The position numbers were made by a program, and so were the translations under genes. 64,000 bases of DNA from Eremomyces bilateralis CBS 781.70 (taxonomy: Eukaryota), in assembly GCA_010015585.1 (NCBI GenBank), contig ML975157.1. The stretch is one strand, 5' to 3'. The notes beneath the pieces were generated by a model, which was not told the origin of the DNA, did no database searches, and saw nothing but the letters and a program-made list of their open reading frames with translations. Position 1 is the stretch's first letter; every line of letters begins with the position of its first letter. This document shows positions 5,601 to 58,070 of the stretch, one piece after another.

Positions 5601-8600
5601 TCACAGTCCTGGGAATTGGTATCATGTAATATTTGATCTGAGGGACGTGAGGATGGACCAAATGTTCATCGCCCGTTCATCTTATTTGATCGTCGCGCAC
5701 AGGAGCGATGCATCCACCCATATTCCTTGCGCTGTCCCCAGGATGAATCCGATCGTCGCCCCACGCAATGCTCCCGATATGGATGGGGCATGCTAAATTG
5801 TTGAGTGCTGGCGGCTGCGACAGCCGACTGCTTAGTGCTCGGGAGACACGAAAGTCGACCAAGGGAGGGGTCAGCTATTAAGCGTGCTAAGAAAATACCG
5901 ACAAGGCTGTGGAGCAAATAATATTCTTCGACGACAAATTGCTTTCGCTTCCCCGTAGGCCATAACCAGTAATGTTGCAGCTCAAGCAGGAGCCACCAGG
6001 AAATACGAAATGACTTTCGGATCTCCTCGAAGTTCTGACATGATGAGTGGCGTCTCCGGAATGATAGAGTAATACTTCGGTGACTGCGCTAATAACCACC
6101 GTTCCATTCTTGCCGCCAAGCCCAAACAATCAATGGATTCGTGATCACGAATGGTTATCCATAATAATAACGGTAATGATAGCTCTCAATAATAAGTCAA
6201 ATACCTGCTAGTAATTCACTGGGGCCCAGAAAAGGATGACTTCAGATGAGATTGTACAGTGCTAGGGCTACAATCAGCATGGATGATGAGCAGATGGGCG
6301 GTTCCAAATCACGGAACTTTCCGAAATCCATCCCAGCAACTCAAATGTCTCCGATTTCTCTCCACCGACCACGGGAAATCCTGAACCTGGTCAGTATTTT
6401 GATATTATTACTGTTTCTCTTTGTTGGGAGGGTTGCCTTGAGAATGACCTTCCTGCAAATGTCCAGCTGTGGTACCTATGTCTGGTGTGGAGATGCGGAA
6501 ATGCGCCAATACTAAACATCATGCTGGCACAGTTTCTCCGTTGATTTTCGTAGACTAGATTATTGCTTCATGACAATCACAAATTGGATCAAAGTCATAG
6601 ATATACGAGTTCCAAGTCCGATATCTAACATTCGGATATCGCCACAAGTTTTATGCTTCATTTTCGAGTGAGCCTGGCGATTCTTACGCACGTCGTTCAT
6701 GAATACTTTCGCCCGTGCAACGAGGCGCATATGGCTTCTCAAAACCGTGAATTCGGGATGGAGTTGGACTGGAAATGCGTGTTGCGCAGAGATCTGATGA
6801 CAGCAACAGTGGTTTCGCGATCGTGGATGCACAACCCGAGTCAATGGAGAGTGGTGGCACTGGATGCCACAACAGGGTTCCGGTGGTGATGAACGAGGGC
6901 ATCTGCAACCACCCGATCTGTTTCCCGTTTTCTGTCTCCAGACTCCAGTGAAGTTGGCGATGCTCATGACAGCGATCCGATGGCCTGGTCTACGGTTCCC
7001 ACAGACAGAAAAGGAAGTGCTGGACGAGTGCTGGCGATGGCACCAAATCATACTCTCCACAGACGGTCCACTGGGCACTAATCCAGCGCCAATATAACGC
7101 CATGGAACGCCTCGCCTACGAGATACACAGCTGTGGGTTCGGGCTGCTTAGCGCTGGGTGCAGAGAGCGAACTCGGTCCCTTCCCCAATACCCAGCATGC
7201 ATTATGCACTATGCAGGAGCCCATCAGAATTCAGACATGGGCTCGTTTATCAAGGATACCGACCCTCCATGACTCCATCAGATTCGCAGCTGGTGGCGTC
7301 ACCCGGAACTGACCGAGGAGGAAATGAGATGGTGGAGGCCATGGGGTCCCTGACTAGTGACTTCTGGTTGCAAGCACCTAGTGCTGTCGTGTGGCCGCTT
7401 CTGGGGTCAAGAGTAGAAAATCACGGGTGAGGCGTCCACTATGGCTCTCGTTCAACTTTCAAGTCTTGAATTGCCCGATACTCTTTATCCATCCCTCTTG
7501 AGTCTTGACAGGCTGCGATACCCAGTATTCACTACTCTGTAATAGGTACGCCCAAATCTGTCGAGGTATACTTGAGTCTGAAATGGCGTCTTGGGTGCAC
7601 CCGTCGGGCTTGCCAGAGTACCTCCGGATTTCCCTTCAGTATCAGTCCTAGGAAATAATTATGGATGCTCCGTCCGATGCAAACACCCTCTAATCTAGCC
7701 CCTTCTTGATCTAAATATAATCAATCAAAGAGGACATGCCACAAAGACACGCGAATTTGGTCGACTTAGGAGAAATGCCCCATCGCGGCTAGCTGCCTCA
7801 ACGCTACTTGGATGGATTCATTGACCGATGAAAATACCGAATTACTGATGGACGGGATGGTATCGAAATGAGCCGAGTGTGCATGAGTAGTGACAGCCTG
7901 ATAGACCGTCAACGATGGCCTCAGTCATTCCTCCTGAGTTCTCACATTCTCACTGCTAAAAAATCACAAGTCACATTCCCACCCCTTCCTTCAAAGTTCC
8001 CATCGCGCATCTCGCATCTCGGATTGGTTTAATTTGCAATGGAAGGATTGCAGGACAAGCGCGAACAATACGACGGGGATAGCGCGTATCCTGGTTGACA
8101 TCCGCCAATGGAGCCGGGAGGTAAGCGAGACCCTGGCAGCTAACCAAGGATTTTCCCAATATTTTCTTCCTGTATGAGCTTGAACCGTCAATCCATCACA
8201 ATTCACCTAATTTCCCATGGTCGGGATTGCGTGGAGGAGGTTTCCTGATCCAATTCTCTTTTATTCAACTCACTTCAACGGCATTTGCCTTGCTCGAAGA
8301 TTCGCCTAAGTCTTTCTTGGTCCACTCGTGTTCCCGTTGCTTTTTCTTCCTCTGTCTTTCCTCTGCAGGCATATCTTGATCTGGTTGACCAGCGCTTGAC
8401 TATCATGTAAATGTCTCGGAGCATGTCGTGCCCGATTCCGTATCACAGTGCAGCTTCCCTGTATCGGATCATAAGGATTATCGTACTACGTATGTATGTT
8501 GATCTGCTTAAAGGAGACCCTTCAGGCCTCAAGGCCTCAACAGTGGATCAGAGCATTTTCCAGCTTAACTAATAACTACACTAACTAAGTTAAGTTAGTT

Positions 8601-15705: not shown

Positions 15706-17428
15706 TCATTCCCATATTCCAAGGACTGTCATAACTCCAGCTCCCCCCCCAAGACTAATCAGTCCCACTGACACCTCTTTCCAGTCCGCATTGCTCAGTT
15801 CACCACGTAGCCAGTCCTCACTCCACATCTCCACCACTGCCACCCAGATTAAAACTCCGGCACTCAAAGCATCCATCGCCCCCACCGTTTGGATCGTTCT
15901 CGGATCGTTCTCATTGAAAGTGTGGCGGACGATGAGACCGATAGCCATACCAATCGGGGCTGTCACCGCAAACGCCACTCCGTAGAGTAGTTTGCTGAGA
16001 AGTGTCGGATGCCAGAGCGTAGCGATTCGGGCACCAAGCGCCAGACCTTCAAAGAGTTGATGGAGGAGGATGACGGCGAAGAGGACCGTAAAGTTGGCGG
16101 CGGGCGTCACAGTCAGTAAGACACCGAGCACTAGATATACTTATGTCAGATCGTCTATCGCTTCGTGGTGAGAGAAAATGGCAACCCACAGATCGAATGG
16201 AAAATCATTCCCGCTTCCATGATCATAACATGTAGCTTTTCCTTCTCATGCTGAGCGATTCCTTCCTGGTCCCATATTGCTAGGTCCCGCTCAATCGCTC
16301 TCGGACTCTTCATATCGCGTTGTTGTAGAGGTGCCAGGATGCGAGATGGATATATATCCGTGGATGTCCCGTGTTTTGCCCTGGACGAGAGATACCGAAG
16401 ACCTGCATAGTCCACCAAAAACGAAATGAAGACGCCCGCCATTGCAATAACGGTTGCTGTGCTCTCAAATGACAGCTCTCCAAGGCAGGGGTTAAGGAAT
16501 TGTAAGAATGCATGCGAAAGGAGCTGCAACTGTCAGTACTGGGAGTTGAGGGGCACAGGAGGTATACTTGCGTGAATAAAAATCGTTGCAATAATAACGC
16601 CCGTCCCAAATTGCTTGATAGCAGTGAAAACCAGACCATCTTTTCGTATACGGGTCCACTTTCTGATCCCGATAGGTCCCAGGACGGCTGTCGAACTCGT
16701 TAGCGGACAGACTTCTGGCTGGCCATCGAGACACGAACCGACGGAGCTGGTCGCTAGGACGATGAAGATGCTAGCCACTCGAAAGGTAAGGTCCGAGTCT
16801 CCAACTCGTTCTGCATCACACTTTGCGATGCCACCCATCTTGGCATGGCCGTGTCCTCCAGAGCTCTCTTCCATAGAAGACGACCCTTCTCTATTACTGC
16901 TTTCGCCGGCACCGTGTCCGCCATGAGCCGGCTCATGGCTGTGGCCTGGAGCTTCAGGAGACTCATTGTGGCTAGTATCTTGCACGTGTCTGTCATCGTC
17001 ATTTCTTAGAACCTGAGCTTCGCGGAGTTCCGCAACTTCCGTCCAGCTACATTCCATCTCATGAAAGTTATGGACCTACCCTGGTTGGATTTGAGACGGT
17101 ACACTGTCTGTTTGGCCCGGAGCGGACGCAGCTGTTGGAGTGGAACCATCTACAAGGCAGAATCTACAAGAGGAATCAGTCAAGATATTAGCCGCCCCTG
17201 AGCTGTTGCCTTACAGCTGGCCCCCCTCAATATGGCAATCTGGTCTTGCAGAAGGCGTGACTTGCGGCAGATCGGTAGGCCTTTCACAGTATCTAGAATT
17301 CATTAGCGAGTTGATTATTCGAGAAATTCGGATAAAACAGACTCTATATTGCCATTCCAATGACACTGCGAAACGACCGGGCTGACTGCCAAAGAAATAC
17401 TAAAGATTGAAAACAATAACCGCCTCAT
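15706..17428 (-). CDS. zrfC: ZIP-family zinc transporter, ZrfC/Candida Zrt1 type, with signal peptide and CH-x7-C repeats
   Basis: Signal-like MRRLLFSIFSISLAVSPVVS. Spliced repeats CHWNGNIE|YC and CHIEGGQL|FC (introns 17342-17293 and 17214-17164). His-rich linker. ZIP motifs IKQFGTGVIIATIFIH, NPCLGELSFE, MEAGMIFHS, HQLFEGLALGARIA, DALSAGVLIWVAVVEMW. Confidence 0.88.
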
Positions 17429-17887
17429 AGCGAAGAATGAGTTGAGAAAGGAAATGCATTGGAGCGCGATGCCATAGCAGCGCTCCCATCTAGGTGGATG
17501 GAGGTAGGTTGATATAACATGCAACCAGGGAAGCTGTACAAGCTGGAAACACCCACCGAGAACGGCGAGAATATATTCCGTACGGTCCGAGGACTTCGTA
17601 GTAAAGCCTATCAACTTGCTGCGGCTCAAAGTGAATAGATATATTCCGAGACGTGCCAAGCTACGTTTCAAACGTTTGGGTCAATCTAGTTGGGATTGGC
17701 AGGGGTTGGCGTTGACGCTGAAGGAGACACAAATCGAGGTGATCAGCACGATGACCTGCTGGGGAAGCGCTCACTGGGAAAAGTAACGATCACTTGGTGC
17801 GAGATTCATTACATCTGTACAACTATTCCATGCAAGAATTCTAGTGAGACCGATGTAGTGTAGGTATTTTCTGTGTTCAAATCCCCC

Positions 17888-18268
17888 CAGGGTTTAGGGC
17901 ACCCAAGATTCTGTCGGTAAGGAATCTGCAGTACATGTGTTACTATCTGACGAGTTATACAAGCAGAACCGGCACCACTGCAGACTCCCGCAAGATGATG
18001 TTGAGGTTTAAGACTGAAAAGCGACCACAGAGGATAGACGGATTGGAAAGGAGACGGAGTAAGTGTTTCGAAGACAGACATGGTCAAAATTCACCTGGTA
18101 GACTCACACCGGTTGCGAGGATGGTTTTGAAAAAATAATAAGACACCCGGAGTAAAAGTAAGGCCGAATGAAAGCAGAATAATGGGAATGTCTTACCGTA
18201 CCGTTTGCAAGTTTGTTTATAAAAGATTCTGTTTGTCGGCAGCGAACCATCAAGGTTTCCATCAAGGT
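17888..18268. promoter_or_regulatory. Putative ZafA/Zap1 zinc-response elements in the bidirectional zrfC-NAS promoter
   Basis: CAGGGT at 17888-17893, and tandem CCATCAAGGT copies with CAAGGT cores at 18251-18256 and 18263-18268. ACCATCAAGGT is one mismatch from the yeast ZRE ACCTTNAAGGT; CARGGT is the core of the Aspergillus ZafA motif. Confidence 0.6.
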
Positions 18269-18411
18269 ACGCTGGAGACACCCCAGGTTGCCCTATTATA
18301 CGACTGGAGATTGGGATGCCGTAAGTATCTTGGGACTGGCTTCACTTGGTATCAGAATCGAGCCGAACGTTTTCCCTTCATTGGACAGTAGTGTGGAGAG
18401 AATCGCCAGCG

Positions 18412-19539
18412 ATGACTACCCCAACAGACCGAACCGCAACGGTTCCAGTGCAGTTTCAAAAGCCGTATCGAGGATCTGTGGCGGAGACTTCTGGCCTTGT
18501 TACCCCTCCGGATGACACGGGCAGTCCGCCGACACTGCATGACGATAGCGCTCGAGAGGAGGCTCATGATATAATAGAGCGGCTGGTTGGAATCTATCAC
18601 CAATTGCTCGCACACCGATCCTTGGCTCCAAGTGCAGAGGTTTCCGAAACGTTCGGTCGTCTCGTGCGTGCATGCATCGAGCCTCGCAGCAAACAGACCG
18701 TCGAACTCGTCTTGTCGGATCCGGTCCTGAACAAGATTGCCTCGAGCCTGCTCAAGCTGTGCTCTGCTGGAGAGACAGAGCTGGAACTGTCTTGGGCTGG
18801 ACGCATTGTCAATTCTGGTGCTGGGAGCAACCAGTCTGGTAAGCACAGTGCATACACACTCTTCCAAGTGCCATCTGCTGACGGACAGTTCCGCAGCACA
18901 AGAGACGCTGCGAGCGTTCCCCTATTACGACAACTATGCCAGGCTCAGCCGCCTCGAATGCGCCAATCTCGTTACGCTATTACCCTCGGATCCAACATCC
19001 ATTGCATTCATTGGATGCGGTCCCCTTCCTCTCTCGTCATTCTGTCTGTCTGACCGATTTCCCGCCGCGCGAATCAATAATATCGACCACGACGTGACCG
19101 CCATCAGCCATGCCGAGAAACTATCCAATGCGCTCGGATACGATCAGGTTACGTTCACTCATGCATCGGCGGCAGAGTGTGGGAGCCTTCGGACGTTTGA
19201 CGTCGTGCTCATGGCCGCGTTAGTCGGGATGGACCAGGGCGAGAAGATGAATTTGGTGCGGAATCTCGCGGCGGAGATGCGCCCTGGAGCGATCCTGTGC
19301 ATCCGGAGCGCGCATTCGTTGAGGTCGTTGCTCTATCCGGTAAGCTGGCGCTTTGAATCTGCCACGAGGGCTATCGTGGTCGAGACATGCTAAGCAAGTG
19401 ATCACAGACGATTGAGATGTCCATTCACTGCCTTGATATAGGACTGAGACCACTTCTGGAGGTTCATCCGTGGCATGACGTCGTCAACTCGACACTATTT
19501 ACGAGTGTAGAGAGGACGGATGCCGGAGATGACAGGTGA
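18412..19539 (+). CDS. NAS: Nicotianamine synthase (3 exons)
   Basis: Exons 18412-18838, 18897-19339, 19408-19539 with GTAAGC..CAG introns. NAS motifs TFGRLVRAC, LLKLCSAGETELELSWA, FPYYDNYARL, IAFIGCGPLPLSS, FDVVLMAALVG, RSAHSLRSLLYP, EVHPWHDVVNS. Confidence 0.93.
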
Positions 19540-22043: not shown

Positions 22044-24976
<2,933 letters not shown>

Positions 24977-27681: not shown

Positions 27682-29450
27682 ATGGCCGGCTCTTTGCCTC
27701 TTTATGATTGGCGTATTCTGCTGCTTATGGGTAACTGGAGCTTTGGATGCTGCTGGAAAGCAAACAAGGCAGACGGTATCCACTTGTATGGATTTCTTTT
27801 CCCTCGTGTGGATGGGTGCTAACCTTTGTAGACTCTGATCTGGCAAAACAGGCTGCAGCTGCCCATCGCCGCATCAGGCGAAGTGGTGGAGCCCATGGAC
27901 ATTGCGGAGAAAGCGATGATGATGATGATGACGATGAGGACGAATTTGACTATGATACGCCGTGGCATATAGCTGCTGTCGGGATCATCTTCGCCATTAG
28001 CACGTCCTCTGCTTGTTTCCCTATGATTGTGAAGACATACCCAAGACTTCGGGTTCCCACGTCTTTTCTTTTCTTTGCTCGTCACTTCGGGACCGGAGTG
28101 CTACTCGCAGCGGCGTTTGTTCATCTCCTCACCGAAGCGTTCGTCTCATTGACAAGCAAATGTCTCTCCGACTATTGGACCAAGAGGTACCCCTCAACAG
28201 CAGGCGCCGTCTGTCTTGGGGCGATTCTTCTCGTCACACTCGTAGAGATGATCTTCAGTCCGAATCGTCATCTCATCCGAGAGAAAGTCCAATACATCGA
28301 GGAGCTTGATGAATCGAGATCCAGCCAGGACGAGGCGGTGTTTCGTCTAAAAGAGATCAATATTGGTCACAAACTCGAAATTCCGGACTATCTTAGAAGC
28401 TATGCAAATGAAGCTGGAACGCATCATACGCACCATCGCCGAACTTTTTTCCGCAGGAGCAGCGGCATATTTGGAGGTCACCTTGAGCTTCCTCGATTTA
28501 GCAGGATCAATCATGGTCCTGGGATCCGAAAAAGTCACACAGCATGGCGTGACAGTTACCATCCGCGTTTCGGAGGAGCCTATCATCCCCCGCTTCCTCG
28601 ATCGAGCCACCACCACACCCATCGGGCCCCGATAAGTGGCCTTGGCACTGGCAACTTCAATCGGAACTCAACAAGCATCGGAAAAGGGCTAGATGACTTT
28701 ATAGAAAATGCGAAGAGACAAAATTATGAATTGGACGAAATTAAGAAGGCAAGGAAGAGCCGCCAGTCAACTAGGTTTCAAGGAGCTATAAACGAGAGCC
28801 AAGAAGACCTGGTCCAACCACAAGAGATGCCAAATGAGCGAAAGCTAAAGGTTACGGAGGTTGAAAGCAACTTTGAGTCGATCCCATTGTCACCAGAGCA
28901 GAAGTTCCAAAGGATGAGAGTCCAAGTCACGATGCTGGAGATGGGTGTTCTCTTCCATGGGATCTTCATCGGAATGTCTCTCAGTGTCGCAGTTGGCATG
29001 GAATTTAACATGTTCCTCGTTGCCTTCGGGTTTCACCAATTGTTCGAGGGGTTGGCTCTAGGCTCACGAATCGCGGCATTGCCGTGGCCGAAAGGTTCGA
29101 AAAAGCCGTGGTTGATGTGTTTATCATACGGAGCAACGTAAGTCTTCCCCTGCTTCACACTTTCACATCGTCCAGACACTCATGATTCTAGTGCGCCGGT
29201 CGGCCAGGCACTTGGAGTAGCCACTCATTCAGCGTATGACCCAAGCTCAGACACCGGGCTCATCTTGGTCGGAATCTTCAATGCTATTTCATCTGGACTC
29301 CTGATCTATGCTGCTCTCGTCGAGCTTCTGTCCGAAGACTTTTTGAGCGACGAAAGTTGGCGTGTTTTGCGAGGGGCTCGACGTAGCTTTGCGTTCTTTA
29401 TGGTATTTCTGGGTGCTTTCTTAATGTCTTTGGTTGCGGCGTGGGCGTAA
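27682..29450 (+). CDS. Second ZIP-family metal transporter with a long His/Arg-rich cytoplasmic loop (ZrfD/E-like)
   Basis: Start in ATCACC-ATG-G context; introns 27776-27831 and 29138-29191. Motifs ARHFGTGVLLAAAFVHLL, LEMGVLFHGIFIG, HQLFEGLALGSRIA, NAISSGLLIYAALVELLSEDFL, GAFLMSLVAAWA. Confidence 0.92.
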
Positions 29451-42989: not shown

Positions 42990-45900
42990 TTAAGTCTCCG
43001 CCTCGACACCATCGTCGCTGTCGCCAGACATGTCTGATACTCCCCAACACTCGGCGTTATCTGAGTTGCGTAAGCGCTTGCGGTCGCCAGTAGATTGCGG
43101 AGTGGTCACCCACCAGACTGTATCTCCTCATGCTCATCGCTATTCGGCCACTGCTCATAAATGCCTGTACAGTCTGTGACCCGTCCGGTTAGCAAACGAG
43201 CCCATACGTTACTGATCAACTGAGGAGGGAGCGCCTACTCATGCACCTCTCGACCAAGGCTTCATCATCCGCTCTGAATCTCTCAATCTCCGCAGCCAAC
43301 TCATGCCCGTCTTCTTCCATCGCAACCGCTGTCTGATGCACCAAGTGCAGCCAGTTCGCCATGCCGTTCATTACCTCCATGAGCTCCTGCATCCCCCGCT
43401 TCGAGAATACTTCGGACGAGATCACGTTCTCGGCTTTGTGCATCATGGTTTTGAGAAGCTCACGCGTCTTCCACATCCGCCGAAGGAACAGCGGATCGAC
43501 CACATTACCGCCGTCGGCCGGGCCGTCGACGATCTCGGGAACCGCGGCCGTTTCGTAGAGGAGCTCGGAGAGCAGCTGCACGGATTCTTCGCGGACGCCG
43601 ACATCGGGGTAGCTCAATAGACGGTATCCCCAGTTCGGGGTTAGTTCCAGGATTGTGTCGAGGATGATGTGCTCGCCATCGGGGATTGAGGCGGTGAGAT
43701 GTTCATTGGATACCTTGCGAAGTTCATTGAAGAAGCGAACGTGGAACTCGCCGCCCTGTCCGTCGAGGGACGCGGTGCTTCGTGCTGCTGCGCGGATGAT
43801 CTCGACGACGGGAACCGGCTCGCGGGCATACTGACAGAAGCGAAGTCCCGCCAATAGATATGGGGCAACGTATATGTGCGCAACCTGCTCAATGCCCTCA
43901 AAGATGGTCATGAAAAGAAGGTTGGTGATCCCAAGATGCGCTGGTGCGTCAAGGAGAAAGGGCACAAGCTCGCCAAGGAAGAACTCGTCACCCCTTGCCG
44001 TGTCCCATTTGTCCAACATGCGGTTGAAGAAGATCAGCGACTTCTCCTTCGGGTCCCACATCTGCAGTCGTTCAATATCATGACTCGTGGGAGGGAACAT
44101 GTGAGTGTTGGCGTCATACTCCTGGACTCGCTCGGTTTCCGTATCGACCGGGTCAGCGTCCAGGTCGATCTGCATCAAGACATGATAGAAAAGTTCGAAG
44201 AGTCGGTGTTGAGGAGGGCTCCGTCGCTCTATGCACCGAAGCAGCCGCTCGAGATCCTCCCTGATCCTGTAATCATGATGGGCAACGAGGATGTCGAAGC
44301 AATAGCTGAACACGCCAGTACGGAAGATGACGCTGATCTCGAAGATGCCGCGCTTCGATATGTCGCATAGCAACCCGAACGTATCTTCCCAAGCCCGTGC
44401 GTTCCAGAAAAGTCCGGGAAGAGAGGAGTGCAACGCTTGAACGACCATCGGCAATATACCATCGTCAGAGACCTCAGGTGTGGAGGTCCCCTCCGCAGGA
44501 AGCCCGTAGGAGACCGGATCCGACTCTCGGAGAGAATTAAGCAGGTCTATGATCAGTTGCCTGATCCCGAGACGGACCTTAGGGAGTGTAGAGCGAATCA
44601 GCAGATCCGTGAGAGCGTAGGTGCCGTTTCGGTCTTTCATGAAGGCGTTCAACGCCAGCGCATTGCACGTGGGGCAATCGCCGAGTGTATCTTTGAGCAG
44701 CGTAACCATGTCCTCGAATATGGGGGTTTCTTTAGTCCGACCAAACACTTGATGCAAATGGGAGACAACAAGCTCGATGACTTGCATATGCAGACCATGG
44801 CTGTTAGGATCCTCGTCGTGCGGTGCATCGCCACGGAGCCGGTCCAAGAGAAACTTGACGAACCCCGCATGGTTGGGATCGAACATGCAATATTCCCGTA
44901 ATATCAGCTCATTCTCGTGGGCCATTTGTTCTTCCAAATCCGGGGGTCCTGGGACGTGAGGGGGAATCTTCTCGCATCGACCGCTCCACTCTTCTTCATC
45001 CTTCTTGATGCTGGAGGCCCGTTGGTAGAAGAGCATATATGCATTATAGCCCTTGAGCATCGGCGTGTGGTATTCCGTCCCAAAGTGCGACTCTTTGACG
45101 TCCGATAGGCCACCGAAGCACTTTTCGCGAATTTCCGCCGGGTTGAAGACCGTGACATCCGAATCGTCGAATTGCAGCCACTCGGGTTCCACGTCCTGTG
45201 AGGTGTGCCGTGTGCGGATATAGGAAAAGTAGTGTCCATGCTCTGCGACACCTTTGTGCAGCAATACACCCACCAGTTCAAAGATATCTGGTTCGATTGG
45301 CTGACTGGGGTCATTCAAGTGTTCCACAGTGTATTTGGAAAGATCGATCGTCATCGGGAACTCGAACAGATCGTTGATCTTGCTCCGCTGCATCAGACCA
45401 AGATCAAAATCAAACCGCTTCAGATGGAAGATGACGTTGTCCGGGACTTCTTTGAGACACGAACGCTTGACCGCATCGACGAACTTTCCGCCACAGGATT
45501 CGCACTTGTACTTGTTCTCTCCTTCCATGACGTCGCCTTCGACGTATGCCTGCAGGCTCTCAAAGAGATTGGCTTTCCCTTTCACATCGCATTGGATGGC
45601 GATGAAGCTCTCCGATCGTTCCGAGATGTGCTCGCACTCTTTCGACTTAATCTGGTTCACCGTTTGCCCGCCGAAGAAGGACCGGAACTGTTGCTTGTCG
45701 TCCGCGGAAACCATTTGCCCCTCCCATTGATCGAACAGCAGGTTGAAGAACTCTTCTACGTCCATCTGGATGGCAATATCGATCTGTGCGTCATCGTACG
45801 TCCGGATGCACCTTGCCAACTCCCCCGCGTCGGCCGCCTTGATATAGCTGTTCTGCATTTTCAAAAATAGCTTCTGCGTCTCTTCTAGCAGATTCTGCGA

Positions 45901-48900
45901 TCCGTTCGTCTGCGAAATCGGGAGGCTCAGGACGAAGCGTCGGAATTGGAGGTTCATAAAGAGCTGCGTGAGAAGCGAGTTCATGTAGCATGTGTTGCCT
46001 AGATTCCGAATCCCAACATGGCCGGTCGATGATCGAAGGGTTCTTGATCGGTCGTAGAGGTAGTACCGACCTTCCTCGGAGAGCATAGCGCCTTCAGCAA
46101 GGTTGACTAGGCGCTGAAACTGGCTGCGTTCAAGGGCCAACGTGGTCACTAGTTGATAAAGGGCCATGCGCGTTGTGCTTTCGAGCACCGGATGATTGAT
46201 CTTGAGAGGTACACCGCCCTTAACAACTTCCAAGAACGCATGCGGCGGGAACAGGAAGCTTGAGAAGACATGCTCCATAAACTCGTCATCTCGGTATTGA
46301 TCCCCTGGCCGATTCAGGCATTGTATTCCGTATGTGATCAACGTAGCAAGTCCAAAGATCAGGATGTCGGGAAGGTCGCGCCCGACAATCTCTTCATGCG
46401 CATGGCTCATTAGGATCGTGCGCCAAGTCTCGATGTGGTTGGCAAGAGAGGCTTTATCGACAACATCAGCATGCCGCTGCATGACAATGGCGAAAAGGTC
46501 ACGGGCGAGACCGTAGAAATCCGTCGAGGTTTTGGGAGACTCCACCGTCCGTGGGATGATCGACAACGCCATCTTCCAGAACAACTGGGCGATTTCTCGG
46601 ATATCGACGCGCGATCCTGGCGAAGGTTGCTCGGAGACCATCTTGATCACTTTGGCGATGGCGGACCGCAGACCGGGGCGGTTATCCTGGACTAAGAGCA
46701 GGTAATGCATATCCTCAACGTCAGATGCCGATGTAAAAGCGTGCCAGATGTCCGCCGAGAACTTCACCGACTGGACGAGGAAATTGTAGAAATTGTACGC
46801 CGCCACATCCGCCATTTCCAATGGACTCGCGAGTACCGCCTTGAGTGCGCGGAGGATGTTCGAGGTGATTTTCTCGGGATTTTGGACTTTGATGCCCACG
46901 TCACCGTCCGGTTTATATTCGTGTGTTAACCGCAGACAAAGGCTGCTAACTTGACAGAGCTGCTCCACCTCTTCGCTGCCGGAGATGATGGCGGGATATT
47001 GTGGGAAATCGAGGATGAAACTGAGCAGTAGCTGGATGGCGTGAGTGACAAACGTCTGCTCCACGAGGCCCATGTTCCTCTGGCGATTCAGATGCGCTTC
47101 AAGGCACCAAAGTGAATACTGGACCTTGAAGGGCTTTCCATGTACGAAGACGTGACTGGGATCCGTATGGATCGTCTCTATGCAGGCGAGTTCGGTCGGC
47201 ACAAACTTCTTCAGAAACGAGTACGTCGCGCCTGCGATGGGGTCGTCGGCTTCCAGGAATCGATAGAACGACTTCAGCTGGCTACAGATTTCGGCCTCGA
47301 TCGCGGACGAATAGACGCCAATCGGCGCATTCGGCTCGATGATCGCCGGGGCATCCGCCGTTCTCCGGATAAGTAAAAGCCCCTTTCCAAAAATGCCCCA
47401 GTCCCTCAACGTCTGCGTCGGAAAGGCGCCAGGTTCAACTTTCTGGCCGGCGCAGATTAGCTGGAACGTCGAGAACCCGGTCAACTTCGCGAGACGCTGG
47501 ATGAAGTCTCGACGGGTTTCTAAGTCGCCTACTTGCGCAGTGCGGATCTCGGGAGGGTTCGCATCGTCTCCAAAAGCTTGGTAGCTGAATGTGACGGGGT
47601 CACCAACAATCTCGTCACTCACCCTGCCCACGCCAACTGCCGTGAGCGGAGCGGACGCGAACTCCTTGTTGGTCCGTACTTGATGGAGAAGGATTCCAAG
47701 AAACTGAATCGCGCGGGAGAAGGATTGGGTTGGTTCCTCCGATATAGGGATGTCGAATGGCATGGCCGTATGTTCGAACTCGGTCATGCTCCCGTCTCGT
47801 CCGCATGATTCCAACAGCAATGTGAGGCACCGGTTGACAACGGAGACGTGCATGGCCTCGATTTGTTGCTTCGGAACCGAACGCAACTGCAAAGGATTGA
47901 GATACAACTTCGCCAACAGACGCATAACATTCTCCGCGATTTCATGCTCACGTGCCAAAAGGACCATTCGCCAGAGGATACCTTCGCAAGGAACGGTGAG
48001 TATTCCGTTCTCAAGGAAATGAGGGCCCGGGGAGGCGCGGGTGGCGTAGTACGCCGCATGATGAACAAAATCGAACGCTCCAGTTGTGAAATGAACGGGT
48101 TGAAGCGCCTGCAAGAGGGTCTCTATGCATCGATCAATAAACGGATGAGTACTGGTCGACGTCCGAGCTACATCGGCCAACCTGGACCAAACTTGATCGC
48201 GGGCGTCGTCATTAACGGCGCCGGATCCGCAAAGTGTTTCCCAAAGATCGTTGTATTCTTCAAGCGGCAACGAATCGCAATCGTGGAGAAGGAGGGTGAG
48301 AAGGAGGTTGAGCGAATGCTTCATGATCTGGGATTGCATAGGTCCCAATTTGGATTCATTCGAGGTTTCGCGGACTTGATGCTGGAAGCGCTGCAGATCC
48401 TTCAAGACCAGTGATGAAAGACCTAGATCTCCGGTAAGGAACGTGTGGTCTGTCTTGAATAGACGGGCAACATGGGAAAGCGCTTGGATTTCGCCGGTTG
48501 CGCCATCGTTGCTGGTGTTGATTCGGGCTGCACAGTTCGTGTAAAGCTCACGACGAGCTTCTCTATCCGTCGCTCGACCCAGAAGGCAAATCAAACGCGA
48601 AGCTTCTTCATGGACTTCCCGATAGTTCTTGATGGGGCAGCTGGGTGCACTGGTGTCTTGTAGCAGGCGGACAAGCAGTCGAAAAGGCACCATCCTCGAC
48701 GTGTCTCGCATCCACTCCGGCTGTCGCTGTGGGAAAAACTGAGCCAGACTAGTCATGAACCCTAGGATTTCGTTTTGAAATGCATCCGATGGCAATTCAT
48801 CCAGTTTGCCGAATAGATAGAGTAAGTCTGATATCGGCATCAGCTGCATGCTGTGTGAGAGCATTTCGACCGTCGCTGCTGCTACCCGAGGGTCTTGACT

Positions 48901-50853
48901 TTTCGCCAGGGCTTGCCAGACAATGTCGGCCGTCTCGTTCGTGTACTTGTTCGTCACGACGAGGAACCCGAGTATATTGCTGCTTCGTTGGATGAGCTGA
49001 GGGTGTGAATCCACCCCAACTATATACTCGATGATTTTCTCATCGAGGAGAAGCTGTGCAACGAGCTGCATCAGTGCTCCCTGTGAACCAGGACCTTCGC
49101 CTTGCGTCTTGTAAAAGTCCACGAGTTCTTGACTCATGGTCTCGATACCGAACACGCGAGTGTCCATCTTCCCGCCGCAGATGTACTCCTTCAGGAACCG
49201 CACTTTCCAAAAATACATGGCCACGGTGCCCCGGTCATTCAGCTGGCATGCGCCAGGCACGCCGACAAAGTCATCAAACGTCTGACCGGCAATATCCTTG
49301 TTGAGAAATGTGGCAGTATGGAGAACCCTTCCAGGTACGAGGTAGAACAGTCGACGAAGGTCTGCTGACGTTGATGAAGGAAGTTTGTGAACGGATCCGA
49401 AGAGGTTGTTGTGTACCGCTCGGAAAAGAGCAATCGCTTGTGACGGATACGGACCGATCGCCGCGTCGACTGGAAACGAGCGTGGGCGGTACAGCTTGCT
49501 GGCAAGCCGATTAGTCTCTCCAGCAAGTCGCAGGATAAAGAGGACGTTGTGGCCATAAGTTGGGCAAGAGTAGATACGTGCCATGCACTCTTGGCACAGG
49601 TTTGCCAGGTACTTCATTCCGTCGGTGCCGTCCTCAAGGAAGCTGAATAGGGTTTTCTGGCAAATGCCGTCCACTGAGAGCCGATACTCACGATCCAGCA
49701 CATCTCGAAGCACCGGTTCTTCTTGGTCGTGTAAGAAATACCAAAGGGCTTTCAAATGACGGGGGCTGAACAACAGCGGCTTTTGGACACAGTTTAATGG
49801 AGTCTCTCGAATCAGGATCACATCGGTCTCTAGTAGCCGTGCGACGATTTTCACGTAGCTCCGCAGAAGTCGAGTGAGACCGGACTCCGCGTCGATGACG
49901 CTGATTCTGGTCCCGAAATGAACTCTGTGGTGACATTAGTGTTCACTCTTCGCCGCGCTTGATGCGTTGGCCTACCTGCGCGTAAATAGTTTGATAAAGA
50001 TGGTCGCGACCTGCTCCCAGAGATCCCTCTCATTGAGATACAACTCATCCCAGTCGGCGCCATGTTGAGACAGGATTGTCACCTGAGTCTCAAACCAATG
50101 GGCGAGTGAGCCGAAGAAATCGCCCATGATTTGATCGTCTAAAACACATCAGAACTGATGACGTGGGTGACGGTTGGGGGGATGAGAGCACTCACCACGA
50201 TCAATATGGGTGGCCATGGCTTTGGCAGCCTCCACACAGGAAGCAAAACGGTCAACGAAAGGAAACTGGTCGAGGATGTCGGCCGAGAGGGAACCTTCGT
50301 CCCCAGAGATCTGGATGAACTGGCCTTCGTTGAAGTTATCAATCATTTCTGGTTCGTCTGCCTCGATCTCCATCGGAGGACTCGGCTTGGGGGACAGAGG
50401 GGAATCATTTCTCGCGTCTTCCTTCTCTTTCTGAGAAACAGTCTCAATACCTACTTTCTCGCCGTTCACGGGTTCGGTGGCCTTGCCGTTGCTCGCGTGT
50501 TGCTCGGGCTGGTCGGACATATCCATGGGCGAGCCTTGTTGGGTGCGAACGGTCATGGTGACCTGATTTGCCAACGGCGGGGACATGGTGACTTCTTCAG
50601 ATGCTGGCTCGGGCACTCTCTTCTCTTCCGGTTGATGGGGTTGAATTTTCTCTCCTTGATCGTCCATGGCGATGGACACGGGGTCTGCGGACATGCTCCT
50701 TGCACGCTGACCCCCACTATCCAATCTGGGTCGCTTTCTGGTTAGTGATGAATTGGCATCTTCGTAGGAATCCCGTCGCGGTAACGAAGGCTCCGAGCTG
50801 GGAGCCGGAGGAACTGGAGGTATTTCAAAATCTGCCACGCTGGATCCGTCCAT
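42990..50853 (-). CDS. USP34: Large ubiquitin-specific protease, USP34/USP9X/USP24 family
   Basis: Main 2212-aa ORF with Cys box GIRNLGNTCYMNSLLTQLF, QMDVEEF, HLKRFDFD, His box LLHKGVAEHGHYFSY, WLQFDD, AYMLFY. 5' exon 50853-50196 and two small 3' exons ending at TAA 42990; middle 5' exon boundaries approximate. Confidence 0.92.
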
Positions 50854-56774: not shown

Positions 56775-58070
56775 ATGCCGTCTGCAGCGATGGATGATCA
56801 GGTTGCCAAACGGCCCATGAATTCTTGGTTGGCTTTTCGATGTACATCGACTCTGACTCTCGTTTTGAATTATCGCTAACCATAAATGAAAGCCTTCTAT
56901 TGCACCATATTTGATGGAGTGCCTCAGAAAGAGCGCTCTAGCTTCCTTCGTCAGATGTGGAGCAATGAGCTCTTCCAAGCCAAGTGGGCCATTGTCGGGA
57001 AGTCTTACTCGATTATCCGTGACAAAGTTGGGAAGCAGAATGCAAATCTCACCGAATTCATGGAATTGGTTGCTCCTATCATTGGGATCATCCACCCCGA
57101 CGACTACCTAGAGATGATGGGTTGGGAAATCTGCAAGGTGAATGAAGACCACAAACTCATCCGCGTCGTGGAGCCCGACCTCAATGACTTTGATGAATCC
57201 ATCAAGTCAACCACAATGTCTGCCCACGATGTTATCAAGTACTACCGTGACTCTGGCTACACTGACTTGGAGGACTCAGTGATAGGTAAGCCACTCTTTC
57301 TATTTAAAGCAAGCAGTCACTTACTCAACGCCACAGATGAGAGCAGCGTGAATAGTGGCAACTTGACCATGACGTCCAAGCCTAAGAAGAACGCGAAGAG
57401 CAATCACCTAGTCAAGAATGCGCTCAGAATCGAAGCAGATGTCTCATCAACTGGTTCTGACCCGGCTTCGTTTGCGTCCAATGGCAACAACGCCTGTACC
57501 TTCAGCTCCAACGGACAATCTGCTGTTCCTCCTGCAGCCAACGGCAATGTCGCTGCTGGGAGTGTGGCGAACTTGCACATTGGCCAGATCTTTAATGGAT
57601 TCGTCTGGAACGGCGCTGAGTTCGTGCTCCCGGGCAGCAATGCGGACCACAACTTGAACAACACAGCTGCTGTGCCTCCTCCTGTTGCAGCGACTGCGCA
57701 GCGTCATCGAGCTTATCCTGAACCGCCCTCTATTATCGGTCGCTTTGATTGTGCGCTTGGCTACTCGCGACCCCCTAGCAATCTTCCCTGGCTCGGCTGG
57801 CAAGTGCATATGGGAGGAGCTGCAAATGCTTCACGACTCCATGCTCTTGGAATATTGCTCCATAATGGAGCAGCGCACCAGGCGACTATCAATCCCGGTG
57901 TCCTTCAGCTTCAGCCCTCAGCCGTTGCTCAAACGCCTGGCGCGATGACTGTTCCGACCGCCCCGACCGCTCCATCTGCTCCATCTGCTCCGACTGCCCC
58001 GACTGCTCCGACTGCTCCGACTGCCGGGCCCTCCGTAGCGGCCTCTGGTACCTCTGGTTCGAACCCTTGA
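56775..58070 (+). CDS. MAT1-1-1: Mating-type alpha-box transcription factor MAT1-1-1
   Basis: KRPMNSWLAFRS|FY..F...PQKERSSFLRQMW..ELFQAKWAIVGKSYSIIRD..F..LVAPIIGIIHPDDYLEMMGWEI, with the alpha-box intron 56842-56892 at its usual position. Probable second, in-frame intron 57286-57336. Confidence 0.95.
57954..58025 (+). repeat. 9-bp coding tandem repeat x8 (PTA/PSA) in the MAT1-1-1 tail
   Basis: CCGACCGCC CCGACCGCT CCATCTGCT CCATCTGCT CCGACTGCC CCGACTGCT CCGACTGCT CCGACTGCC. Confidence 0.9.

Follow-up and report, generated by a model that had tools for sequence, protein, structure and literature searches.

A divergent ZrfC/Zrt1-type ZIP transporter gene and nicotianamine synthase gene in Eremomyces bilateralis, with candidate zinc-response sites between them

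The gene pair and its transcripts

In a 64,000-nt stretch of contig ML975157.1 from the Dothideomycete Eremomyces bilateralis CBS 781.70 (hereafter the window), a gene for a ZIP-family transporter (EbZIP; minus strand, 17428..15706) and a gene for a nicotianamine synthase (NAS; EbNAS; plus strand, 18412..19539) lie head to head across an intergenic stretch of 983 bp (17429..18411). Little work has been done on what nicotianamine does in fungi, and the principal model species of zinc biology lack the compound. The locus offers a compact and testable case, in which a zinc importer and a chelator synthase flank one short control region with two clean sites. An earlier note on this DNA, made from the sequence alone, had described a ZIP gene (start 17428) and an intact three-exon NAS gene (start 18412) arranged head to head about 1 kb apart, and this arrangement is confirmed here by an RNA contig and by Pfam profiles.

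The introns were first modelled by eye and with a script, and were then compared with contigs of the public run X1, which has no recorded library type and whose contigs serve here only for which segments they join. All eight modelled introns, six in the ZIP gene and two in the NAS gene, are absent from one 5,118-nt contig of that run. Since this contig skips eight segments with GT..AG ends (one GC..AG) at the predicted introns, it is cDNA-like, and both ZIP and NAS occur as spliced RNA. The ZIP gene comprises seven exons and encodes 457 aa (ATG at 17428, stop codon at 15706-15708), and the NAS gene comprises three exons and encodes 333 aa (ATG at 18412, stop codon at 19537-19539). The parts of the locus are as follows.

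17343..17428, minus strand: ZIP exon 1, with the start codon, the signal-peptide-like N-terminus and the start of the motif CHWNGNIEYC (RNA junction 17292/17343; translation)
17215..17292, minus strand: ZIP exon 2, with the end of motif 1 and the start of CHIEGGQLFC (junctions 17292/17343 and 17163/17215)
17080..17163, minus strand: ZIP exon 3, Ser/Thr/Pro-rich linker of the N-terminal ectodomain (junctions 17163/17215 and 16989/17080)
16990..17079, minus strand: ZIP intron of 90 nt, with an in-frame TAG and the Met that starts the public model P0121; skipped in the RNA contig
16739..16989, minus strand: ZIP exon 4, with a His/Gly-rich stretch, a conserved Cys and the first transmembrane helix (Pfam Zip profile positions 13-55)
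16572..16687, minus strand: ZIP exon 5 (junctions 16687/16739 and 16523/16572)
16524..16571, minus strand: ZIP intron of the GC-AG type, 48 nt; the contig joint has CT..GC ends on the plus strand, equivalent to GC..AG in the direction of the gene
16190..16523, minus strand: ZIP exon 6, with a variable cytosolic loop and the start of the HSILLG helix
15706..16130, minus strand: ZIP exon 7, from the HQLFEGLALG metal-site helix to the stop codon (Pfam Zip E=3e-22); the RNA contig continues to 15633
17429..18411, no strand: divergent intergenic region of 983 bp, fully inside the RNA contig piece 17343-18837
18412..18838, plus strand: NAS exon 1, with the E-x3-E pair ETELE at residues 121-125 (Pfam NAS E=1.2e-09; RNA junction)
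18897..19339, plus strand: NAS exon 2, with FPYY, the SAM-binding loop GCGPLPL (SAM, S-adenosylmethionine) and VGMD (Pfam NAS E=7.3e-39; MtNAS 3fpe/3o31 E=3.1e-06)
19408..19539, plus strand: NAS exon 3 and stop codon (junction 19338/19407, cut +1)

Because one piece of the contig runs from 17343 to 18837 without a break, the complete intergenic region is present in RNA. The same contig passes the 3' end of NAS, and about 1.3 kb of it lies beyond 19900. Being unbroken through the intergenic region and beyond the NAS 3' end, it indicates overlapping or abutting transcripts at this locus, and the promoter region may be crossed by upstream or antisense transcription; a single contig that spans ZIP and NAS does not amount to one shared transcript.

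Searches with the exons gave 100% matches to two public proteins, P0001 (a 332-aa 'nicotianamine synthase') and P0121 (a 397-aa 'Zip-domain-containing protein'), and both of these gene models are corrected by the present structures. Since P0121 starts at a Met inside the intron 16990-17079, it is devoid of the signal peptide, the motifs and the whole N-terminal domain, and it is 83 N-terminal residues short of the spliced ZIP model. In P0001, the borders of NAS intron 1 disagree with the RNA contig (region 18808-18896, plus strand). ZIP models with read-through of the TAG or with an alternative 67-nt intron were both superseded by the RNA junctions. When read in frame after its TAG, the 90-nt ZIP intron gives ...VHNFHEMEC..., faintly like the CHFHxGVEHC of relatives; this may be a decayed motif that has turned intronic, or the weak resemblance may be due to chance.

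The two proteins

The last exon of the ZIP gene matches the Pfam profile PF02535 with 79.7 bits against a cut-off of 35.1 (E=3e-22), and the read-through of exons 4-5 alone, with 23.7 bits, stays under that cut-off. The spliced protein contains the helices FHSILLG and HQLFEGLALG, which correspond to FHSILIG and HQFFEGLALG in ZrfC of Aspergillus fumigatus; HSxxxG and HxxxEG are the metal-site helix motifs of ZIP proteins. Among the best 120 matches listed per search of 5.8 billion proteins, the closest relatives of EbZIP are ZrfC-type, and EbZIP is at most about 40% identical to any of the relatives listed. Its identity to A. fumigatus ZrfC (P0167) is 36.9% over 507 columns, from the first motif to the last residue, and that to the second ZIP of the window is 29%, over 201 columns only. 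In a tree of 46 rows, with the second ZIP of the window as the single outgroup and with ZrfA/ZrfB references absent, EbZIP is placed in a 25-row clade with A. fumigatus ZrfC, with 99% support in the Shimodaira-Hasegawa-like approximate likelihood ratio test (SH-aLRT). Its terminal branch of 3.5, against a median of 0.41 (about eight times longer), carries a long-branch risk for this placement, and with that caveat the membership in the ZrfC/Zrt1 clade stated in the earlier note holds. The corresponding 'zincophore-locus' ZIP group of ZrfC and CaZrt1 is OG5_141027 of PMC5751234.

At least one strict CHxHx5C motif is found in 175 of the 177 ZIP relatives of at least 400 aa, and A. fumigatus ZrfC has four. 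EbZIP has none of the strict form and two of the relaxed form CHx7C (CHWNGNIEYC and CHIEGGQLFC); the repeats previously described as CH-x7-C are thus both present, but neither keeps the second His of the canonical motif. Likewise, the juxtamembrane motif CH[FYW]HxGxEHC, which occurs in 171/177 of these relatives, is absent from EbZIP, which has a His/Gly-rich stretch there. Judged by its sequence, EbZIP belongs to the ZrfC/Zrt1 group by descent, yet it fails two hallmarks of the group. A signal peptide is suggested by the sequence alone (MRR followed by a hydrophobic run), and the protein presumably transports zinc. E. bilateralis is represented by no further protein among the best 120 matches of either ZIP search, which faintly suggests that EbZIP may be the sole ZrfC-type copy in the genome.

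The NAS exons match the Pfam family PF03059, with E=7.3e-39 for exon 2 (134.2 bits against a cut-off of 27.1) and E=1.2e-09 for exon 1, and they match the archaeal thermonicotianamine synthase structures MtNAS 3fpe/3o31 (E=3.1e-06). The motifs ETELE (residues 121-125), FPYY (at 150) and VGMD (at 252) have their counterparts at positions 72-76, 96 and 202 in the plant synthases P0098 and P0113. The activity of AtNAS1 requires E73, E77, Y106 and 206-VGMD-209 (PMC10248798); the EbNAS residues were equated with this numbering by motif, not by alignment to AtNAS1. EbNAS keeps every one of the 32 invariant columns in an alignment of 43 fungal NAS, and it is about 33-46% identical to the 42 others in that alignment. 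At its N-terminus it is extended by about 50 aa, and its intron 1 follows codon 142. The tblastn matches to metagenome loci that encode NAS relatives (described below) break at query residues of about 134-147 in L013-15, L027/30, L040/43, L052 and L065.

We propose that EbNAS is a cytosolic core-type enzyme that would make nicotianamine from three SAM. Fungal NAS have been described as 'class III' core enzymes, with 321 fungal entries in five phyla, and the Neurospora crassa enzyme (NcNAS) is active (PMC10248798). According to a preprint (10.64898/2026.08.27.747422, citing Trampczynska 2006), zinc deprivation induces N. crassa NAS, which is said to serve chelation within the cell. Nicotianamine and related compounds are ligands of Cu, Ni, Co, Zn and Fe (PMC9175090).

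Zinc-response sites and conservation of the pairing

In A. fumigatus, the 15-bp consensus of the ZafA zinc-response (ZR) site is DYYVYCARGGTVYYY, and divergent genes less than 1200 bp apart are co-regulated by ZafA (PMC6070888). Three CARGGT cores, at 17888, 18251 and 18263, lie between the two genes in E. bilateralis. All three had been pointed out in the earlier note, and all are present, although their number is near chance: the window has 63 such cores against 59.6 +/- 8.7 in shuffles, about one is expected per 983 bp, and three in that length have P of about 0.07 by a hand Poisson estimate. What stands out is a tandem pair of near-consensus sites. The candidate elements are the following.

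18246..18260, plus strand: ZafA-type site 1, ACCATCAAGGTTTCC, one flank mismatch to DYYVYCARGGTVYYY, 166 bp upstream of the NAS ATG
18258..18272, plus strand: ZafA-type site 2, TCCATCAAGGTACGC, one flank mismatch, 12 bp after site 1 and 154 bp upstream of the NAS ATG
17883..17897, plus strand: weak CAGGGT core, four flank mismatches, 460 bp upstream of the ZIP ATG
17655..17660, plus strand: single PacC-like GCCAAG, at chance level (about one expected in 983 bp, hand estimate)

Sites 1 and 2 both have the form CCATCAAGGT with CAAGGT cores in tandem. A tolerance of one flank mismatch is that of the ZR1-9 classes in PMC6070888, and both sites lie within 1200 bp of the NAS start. The window holds seven sites with at most one flank mismatch, where 3.6 +/- 1.9 are expected; sites 1 and 2 are its only close pair, and a pair within 30 bp arose in 1/150 simulated 64-kb sequences. 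The longer string CCATCARGGT occurs in the window at these two places only. Control of the pair by PacC was considered and set aside, the sole GCCAAG of the intergenic region being what chance predicts.

The same motif recurs upstream of other NAS genes. A set of 80 metagenome loci encoding NAS relatives was clustered at 85% nucleotide identity into 43 groups, and groups with at least 500 bp of a given region were scored for a site with at most one mismatch. The groups with the motif were, by region:

1 kb upstream of the NAS match: 11/30 groups
1 kb downstream: 1/36 groups
2-3 kb upstream: 2/16 groups

The enrichment upstream has a Fisher p of 0.0007 against the downstream region and of 0.0006 against both controls pooled. 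When the core was permuted within the same flanks, the true core ranked first of 360; the 359 decoys were found in a mean of 1.06 groups and a maximum of 8, the best-scoring decoy cores overlap the true core, and none reached 11 groups. The flanks of the motif are similar among groups, e.g., GCCATCAAGGTG and ACCATCAGGGTA, and the low-GC groups are all motif-negative. The enriched motif fits the cited induction of N. crassa NAS by zinc deprivation. Its recurrence suggests that NAS is a regular and overlooked member of the fungal zinc-starvation response, and its presence across unrelated fungal-like contigs may matter more than the E. bilateralis locus itself.

The pairing of NAS with a ZIP gene, in contrast, is not conserved in the material compared, an outcome that the earlier note had named among those that would refute its reading. 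A tblastn search with four ZrfC-type proteins found no ZIP in the 80 metagenome NAS loci (703 kb; best E=1.8), and the side upstream of the intron-bearing NAS is 4-10 kb long in several of them (L013, L027, L043). NAS and a ZrfC-like ZIP lie on different contigs in 4/4 species listed for both, with the ZIP among the best 120 matches (Verruconis gallopava, Pyrenochaeta sp. DS3sAY3a, Bisporella sp. PMI_857 and Cladorrhinum sp. PSN259). These species and loci are distant relatives only, EbNAS being at most 46% identical overall to any other NAS listed. The pairing is most likely a lineage-specific rearrangement rather than an ancient module. The literature searched, which mostly left out subscription journals, describes no fungal NAS-ZIP pair and no ZafA/Zap1 sites at NAS genes.

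Pfam searches of 127 open reading frames (ORFs) from six of the metagenome loci revealed other neighbours of NAS, namely Amidohydro_3, Fung_rhodopsin and TRI12. In both L043 and L052, Amidohydro_3 is upstream and Fung_rhodopsin downstream of NAS. L005 and L052 have Fung_rhodopsin, GMC oxidoreductase and eRF1 in common downstream; the upstream DNA of L005 is too short to reveal an amidohydrolase, and L013 has an upstream amidohydrolase. In L027, the stretch 1.6-2.7 kb upstream of NAS holds, on the NAS strand, a TRI12-type efflux pump of the major facilitator superfamily (7308-8360, plus strand). This pump is a possible exporter candidate, but as a general clue to an exporter it was dismissed, since it was seen in one group only.

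In the E. bilateralis window itself, the Pfam scan of 121 ORFs of at least 110 aa, which genes made of short exons could escape, revealed no exporter, no OPT/YSL importer and no opine dehydrogenase. The earlier statement that no exporter or YSL/OPT importer is visible in the window therefore stands for the ORFs scanned. No Pra1-like family turned up among the same ORFs.

Explanations and comparison with known systems

The explanation that we favour, at a probability slightly better than even, is that two zinc-starvation genes have become neighbours through a lineage-specific pairing and that nicotianamine acts within the cell. The divergent ZrfC/Zrt1-type ZIP would import Zn2+ across the plasma membrane, and a cytosolic core-type NAS would make nicotianamine from three SAM. 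The tandem ZafA/Zap1-type elements would turn NAS on under zinc scarcity and, because the intergenic region is shorter than 1.2 kb, may drive ZIP too. Nicotianamine inside the cell would then be a low-molecular-weight ligand that holds and distributes the scarce incoming zinc. As both families belong to the zinc-starvation response elsewhere, credible elements are placed as in other NAS promoters, and both genes are spliced, the simplest account is that members of one regulon became neighbours. We infer, on these grounds, zinc regulation in E. bilateralis, sharing of the elements by ZIP and a role of nicotianamine within the cell. That role is most likely intracellular because an exporter, a chelate importer and an opine dehydrogenase are not among the 121 ORFs and because ZIP proteins transport ions, not chelates. 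The interpretation of the earlier note as a whole is partly supported: the zinc-regulated shared region that it envisaged has credible ZafA-type sites, but the strong ones are on the NAS side and far from ZIP, and no evidence was found for its suggestions of a replacement of Pra1 by NAS or of a secreted nicotianamine that feeds the ZIP.

Several observations weigh against the explanation that we favour. The RNA support consists of one contig, which is silent on level, growth condition, strand and transcript start. The ZafA consensus is that of Aspergillus, and its validity in this Dothideomycete is assumed. The CAAGGT cores of the strong sites are NAS-proximal, at 823 and 835 bp from the ZIP ATG, and the sole core nearer to ZIP has four mismatches, so that ZIP may not share the elements. 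The long branch of EbZIP and its lost hallmark motifs make its substrate and its location in the cell less certain. Upstream of the metagenome NAS genes, the difference between 11/30 and the far-upstream 2/16 is not significant (p=0.10), and fungal origin is Pfam-confirmed in only three of the 11 positive groups (L005, L027 and L043). Finally, the adjacency of NAS and ZIP was seen in one genome only.

Some of these points would be equally at home with a chance or neutral adjacency, in which the tandem sites serve NAS alone, ZIP is separately controlled or has drifted, and the two genes form no functional unit. We consider this unlikely, though well worth keeping in mind. The absence of the pairing from all 80 metagenome loci, where NAS has other neighbours, its absence from all four species with both genes, and the ZIP-distal position of the strong sites speak for it, as do the eightfold branch length of EbZIP and the loss of a CHFHxGVEHC motif that 171 of 177 relatives retain. 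However, both families are zinc-starvation genes in other fungi, as documented for zrfC (PMC6070888) and, through a citation, for NcNAS (preprint 10.64898/2026.08.27.747422), and a head-to-head pairing of just these two among thousands of genes is improbable by chance, by an estimate rather than a computation. Divergent pairs less than 1200 bp apart are co-regulated by ZafA in A. fumigatus (PMC6070888), and the ZIP gene is correctly spliced through six introns with its metal-site helices intact, which also argues against mere drift.

A bolder proposal is that the cells export nicotianamine, or a compound derived from it, as a small-molecule zincophore whose zinc is taken up through the remodelled ZIP ectodomain, NAS having functionally replaced Pra1/Aspf2. 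If true, staphylopine and pseudopaline would have a counterpart in a eukaryote. The support for a replacement of Pra1 is circumstantial. NAS does occupy the position that Pra1/Aspf2 holds in 61/87 Pra1-positive species (PMC5751234), NAS-like enzymes of bacteria do produce zincophores that are secreted (PMC9175090), N. crassa combines the loss of PRA1 (PMC5751234) with an active NAS (PMC10248798), and the ectodomain of EbZIP is unusually altered. We nonetheless regard this proposal as very improbable. The window ORFs include none of the exporter, OPT/YSL-type importer or opine dehydrogenase that were looked for, ZIP proteins generally carry ions rather than chelates, and the adjacency is not conserved. 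The cited work on N. crassa concerns intracellular chelation (preprint 10.64898/2026.08.27.747422). Histoplasma and Paracoccidioides, which are Pra1-less in Table S1 of PMC5751234, keep ZrfC orthologues; of these, P0143 was read and has its four motifs intact, and P0193 was not individually inspected. Since Pra1-less species can have an orthodox ZrfC, loss of Pra1 alone does not explain the altered ectodomain. Spizellomyces punctatus, which has PRA1 in the same table, and a congener that has NAS (P0059) argue against a strict anticorrelation; the table covers no Dothideomycetes.

We also consider it very improbable that the two genes handle a metal other than zinc, for example iron, copper, nickel or manganese. 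Several metals are bound by nicotianamine and compounds akin to it (Cu, Ni, Co, Zn and Fe; PMC9175090), and the substrate of a fast-evolving ZIP, which is highly divergent and has lost the canonical zinc-binding repeats, may have changed. Against this, the cis-elements fit the consensus for zinc response and show enrichment at NAS genes in general, and the nearest relatives of the ZIP, among the matches listed, are all of zinc-importer types.

Other genes of the window are of interest mainly as context. A second ZIP gene (27735-29447, plus strand) has at least two exons, a long His-rich loop and a Pfam Zip match of E=6e-29, and lies 8.2 kb from NAS. It was rejected as part of a 'zinc island': the sites upstream of it all have at least three flank mismatches, and its database name is generic ZIP only. 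An ORF with a MAT alpha 1 HMG-box (56886-58067, plus strand; PF04769, E=3.8e-27) is also present, and the mating-type (MAT1-1) locus seems to lie within the window. Housekeeping neighbours are an ARG5,6-type acetylglutamate kinase/reductase (22044-24530, plus strand) and a large ubiquitin hydrolase (43219-49935, minus strand).

The zinc-starvation neighbourhood that we favour has its closest known parallels in aspf2-zrfC of A. fumigatus and PRA1-ZRT1 of Candida albicans, which likewise combine a ZrfC/Zrt1-type ZIP, having a predicted signal peptide and a Cys/His ectodomain, with a divergent zinc-handling partner (PMC6070888, PMC3386192). As in aspf2-zrfC, the intergenic region is short and contains CARGGT sites (884 bp in A. 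fumigatus and 983 bp here; PMC6070888). In contrast to both systems, the divergent partner of EbZIP is not Pra1/Aspf2, a secreted HRXXH protein, but NAS, an enzyme that makes a small chelator. Moreover, EbZIP has two degenerate motifs instead of three to four CHxHx5C and is without CHFHxGVEHC, the strong sites are at the partner's end, and an interaction between the proteins EbZIP and EbNAS is not expected. Synteny with Pra1 is itself not universal in the ZrfC group, being found in 61 of the 87 Pra1-positive species (PMC5751234), and the A. fumigatus ZafA paper makes no mention of nicotianamine (PMC6070888).

EbNAS resembles NcNAS in being core-type, with the same Pfam family and catalytic motifs, and its intron 1 lies where the matches to other NAS loci split. 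The induction of NcNAS by zinc deprivation (preprint 10.64898/2026.08.27.747422) fits the response elements found in E. bilateralis. EbNAS differs from NcNAS by the N-terminal extension of about 50 aa, and neither a ZIP neighbour nor a ZafA/Zap1 site is described for NcNAS in the literature searched. The bacterial Cnt operons for staphylopine and pseudopaline also have a NAS-family enzyme beside metal-uptake genes and a zinc-responsive regulator (PMC9175090). Unlike E. bilateralis, where the window scan revealed none of them, these systems depend on the opine dehydrogenase CntM together with an exporter and an importer of the chelate, and the product in E. bilateralis should be nicotianamine itself.

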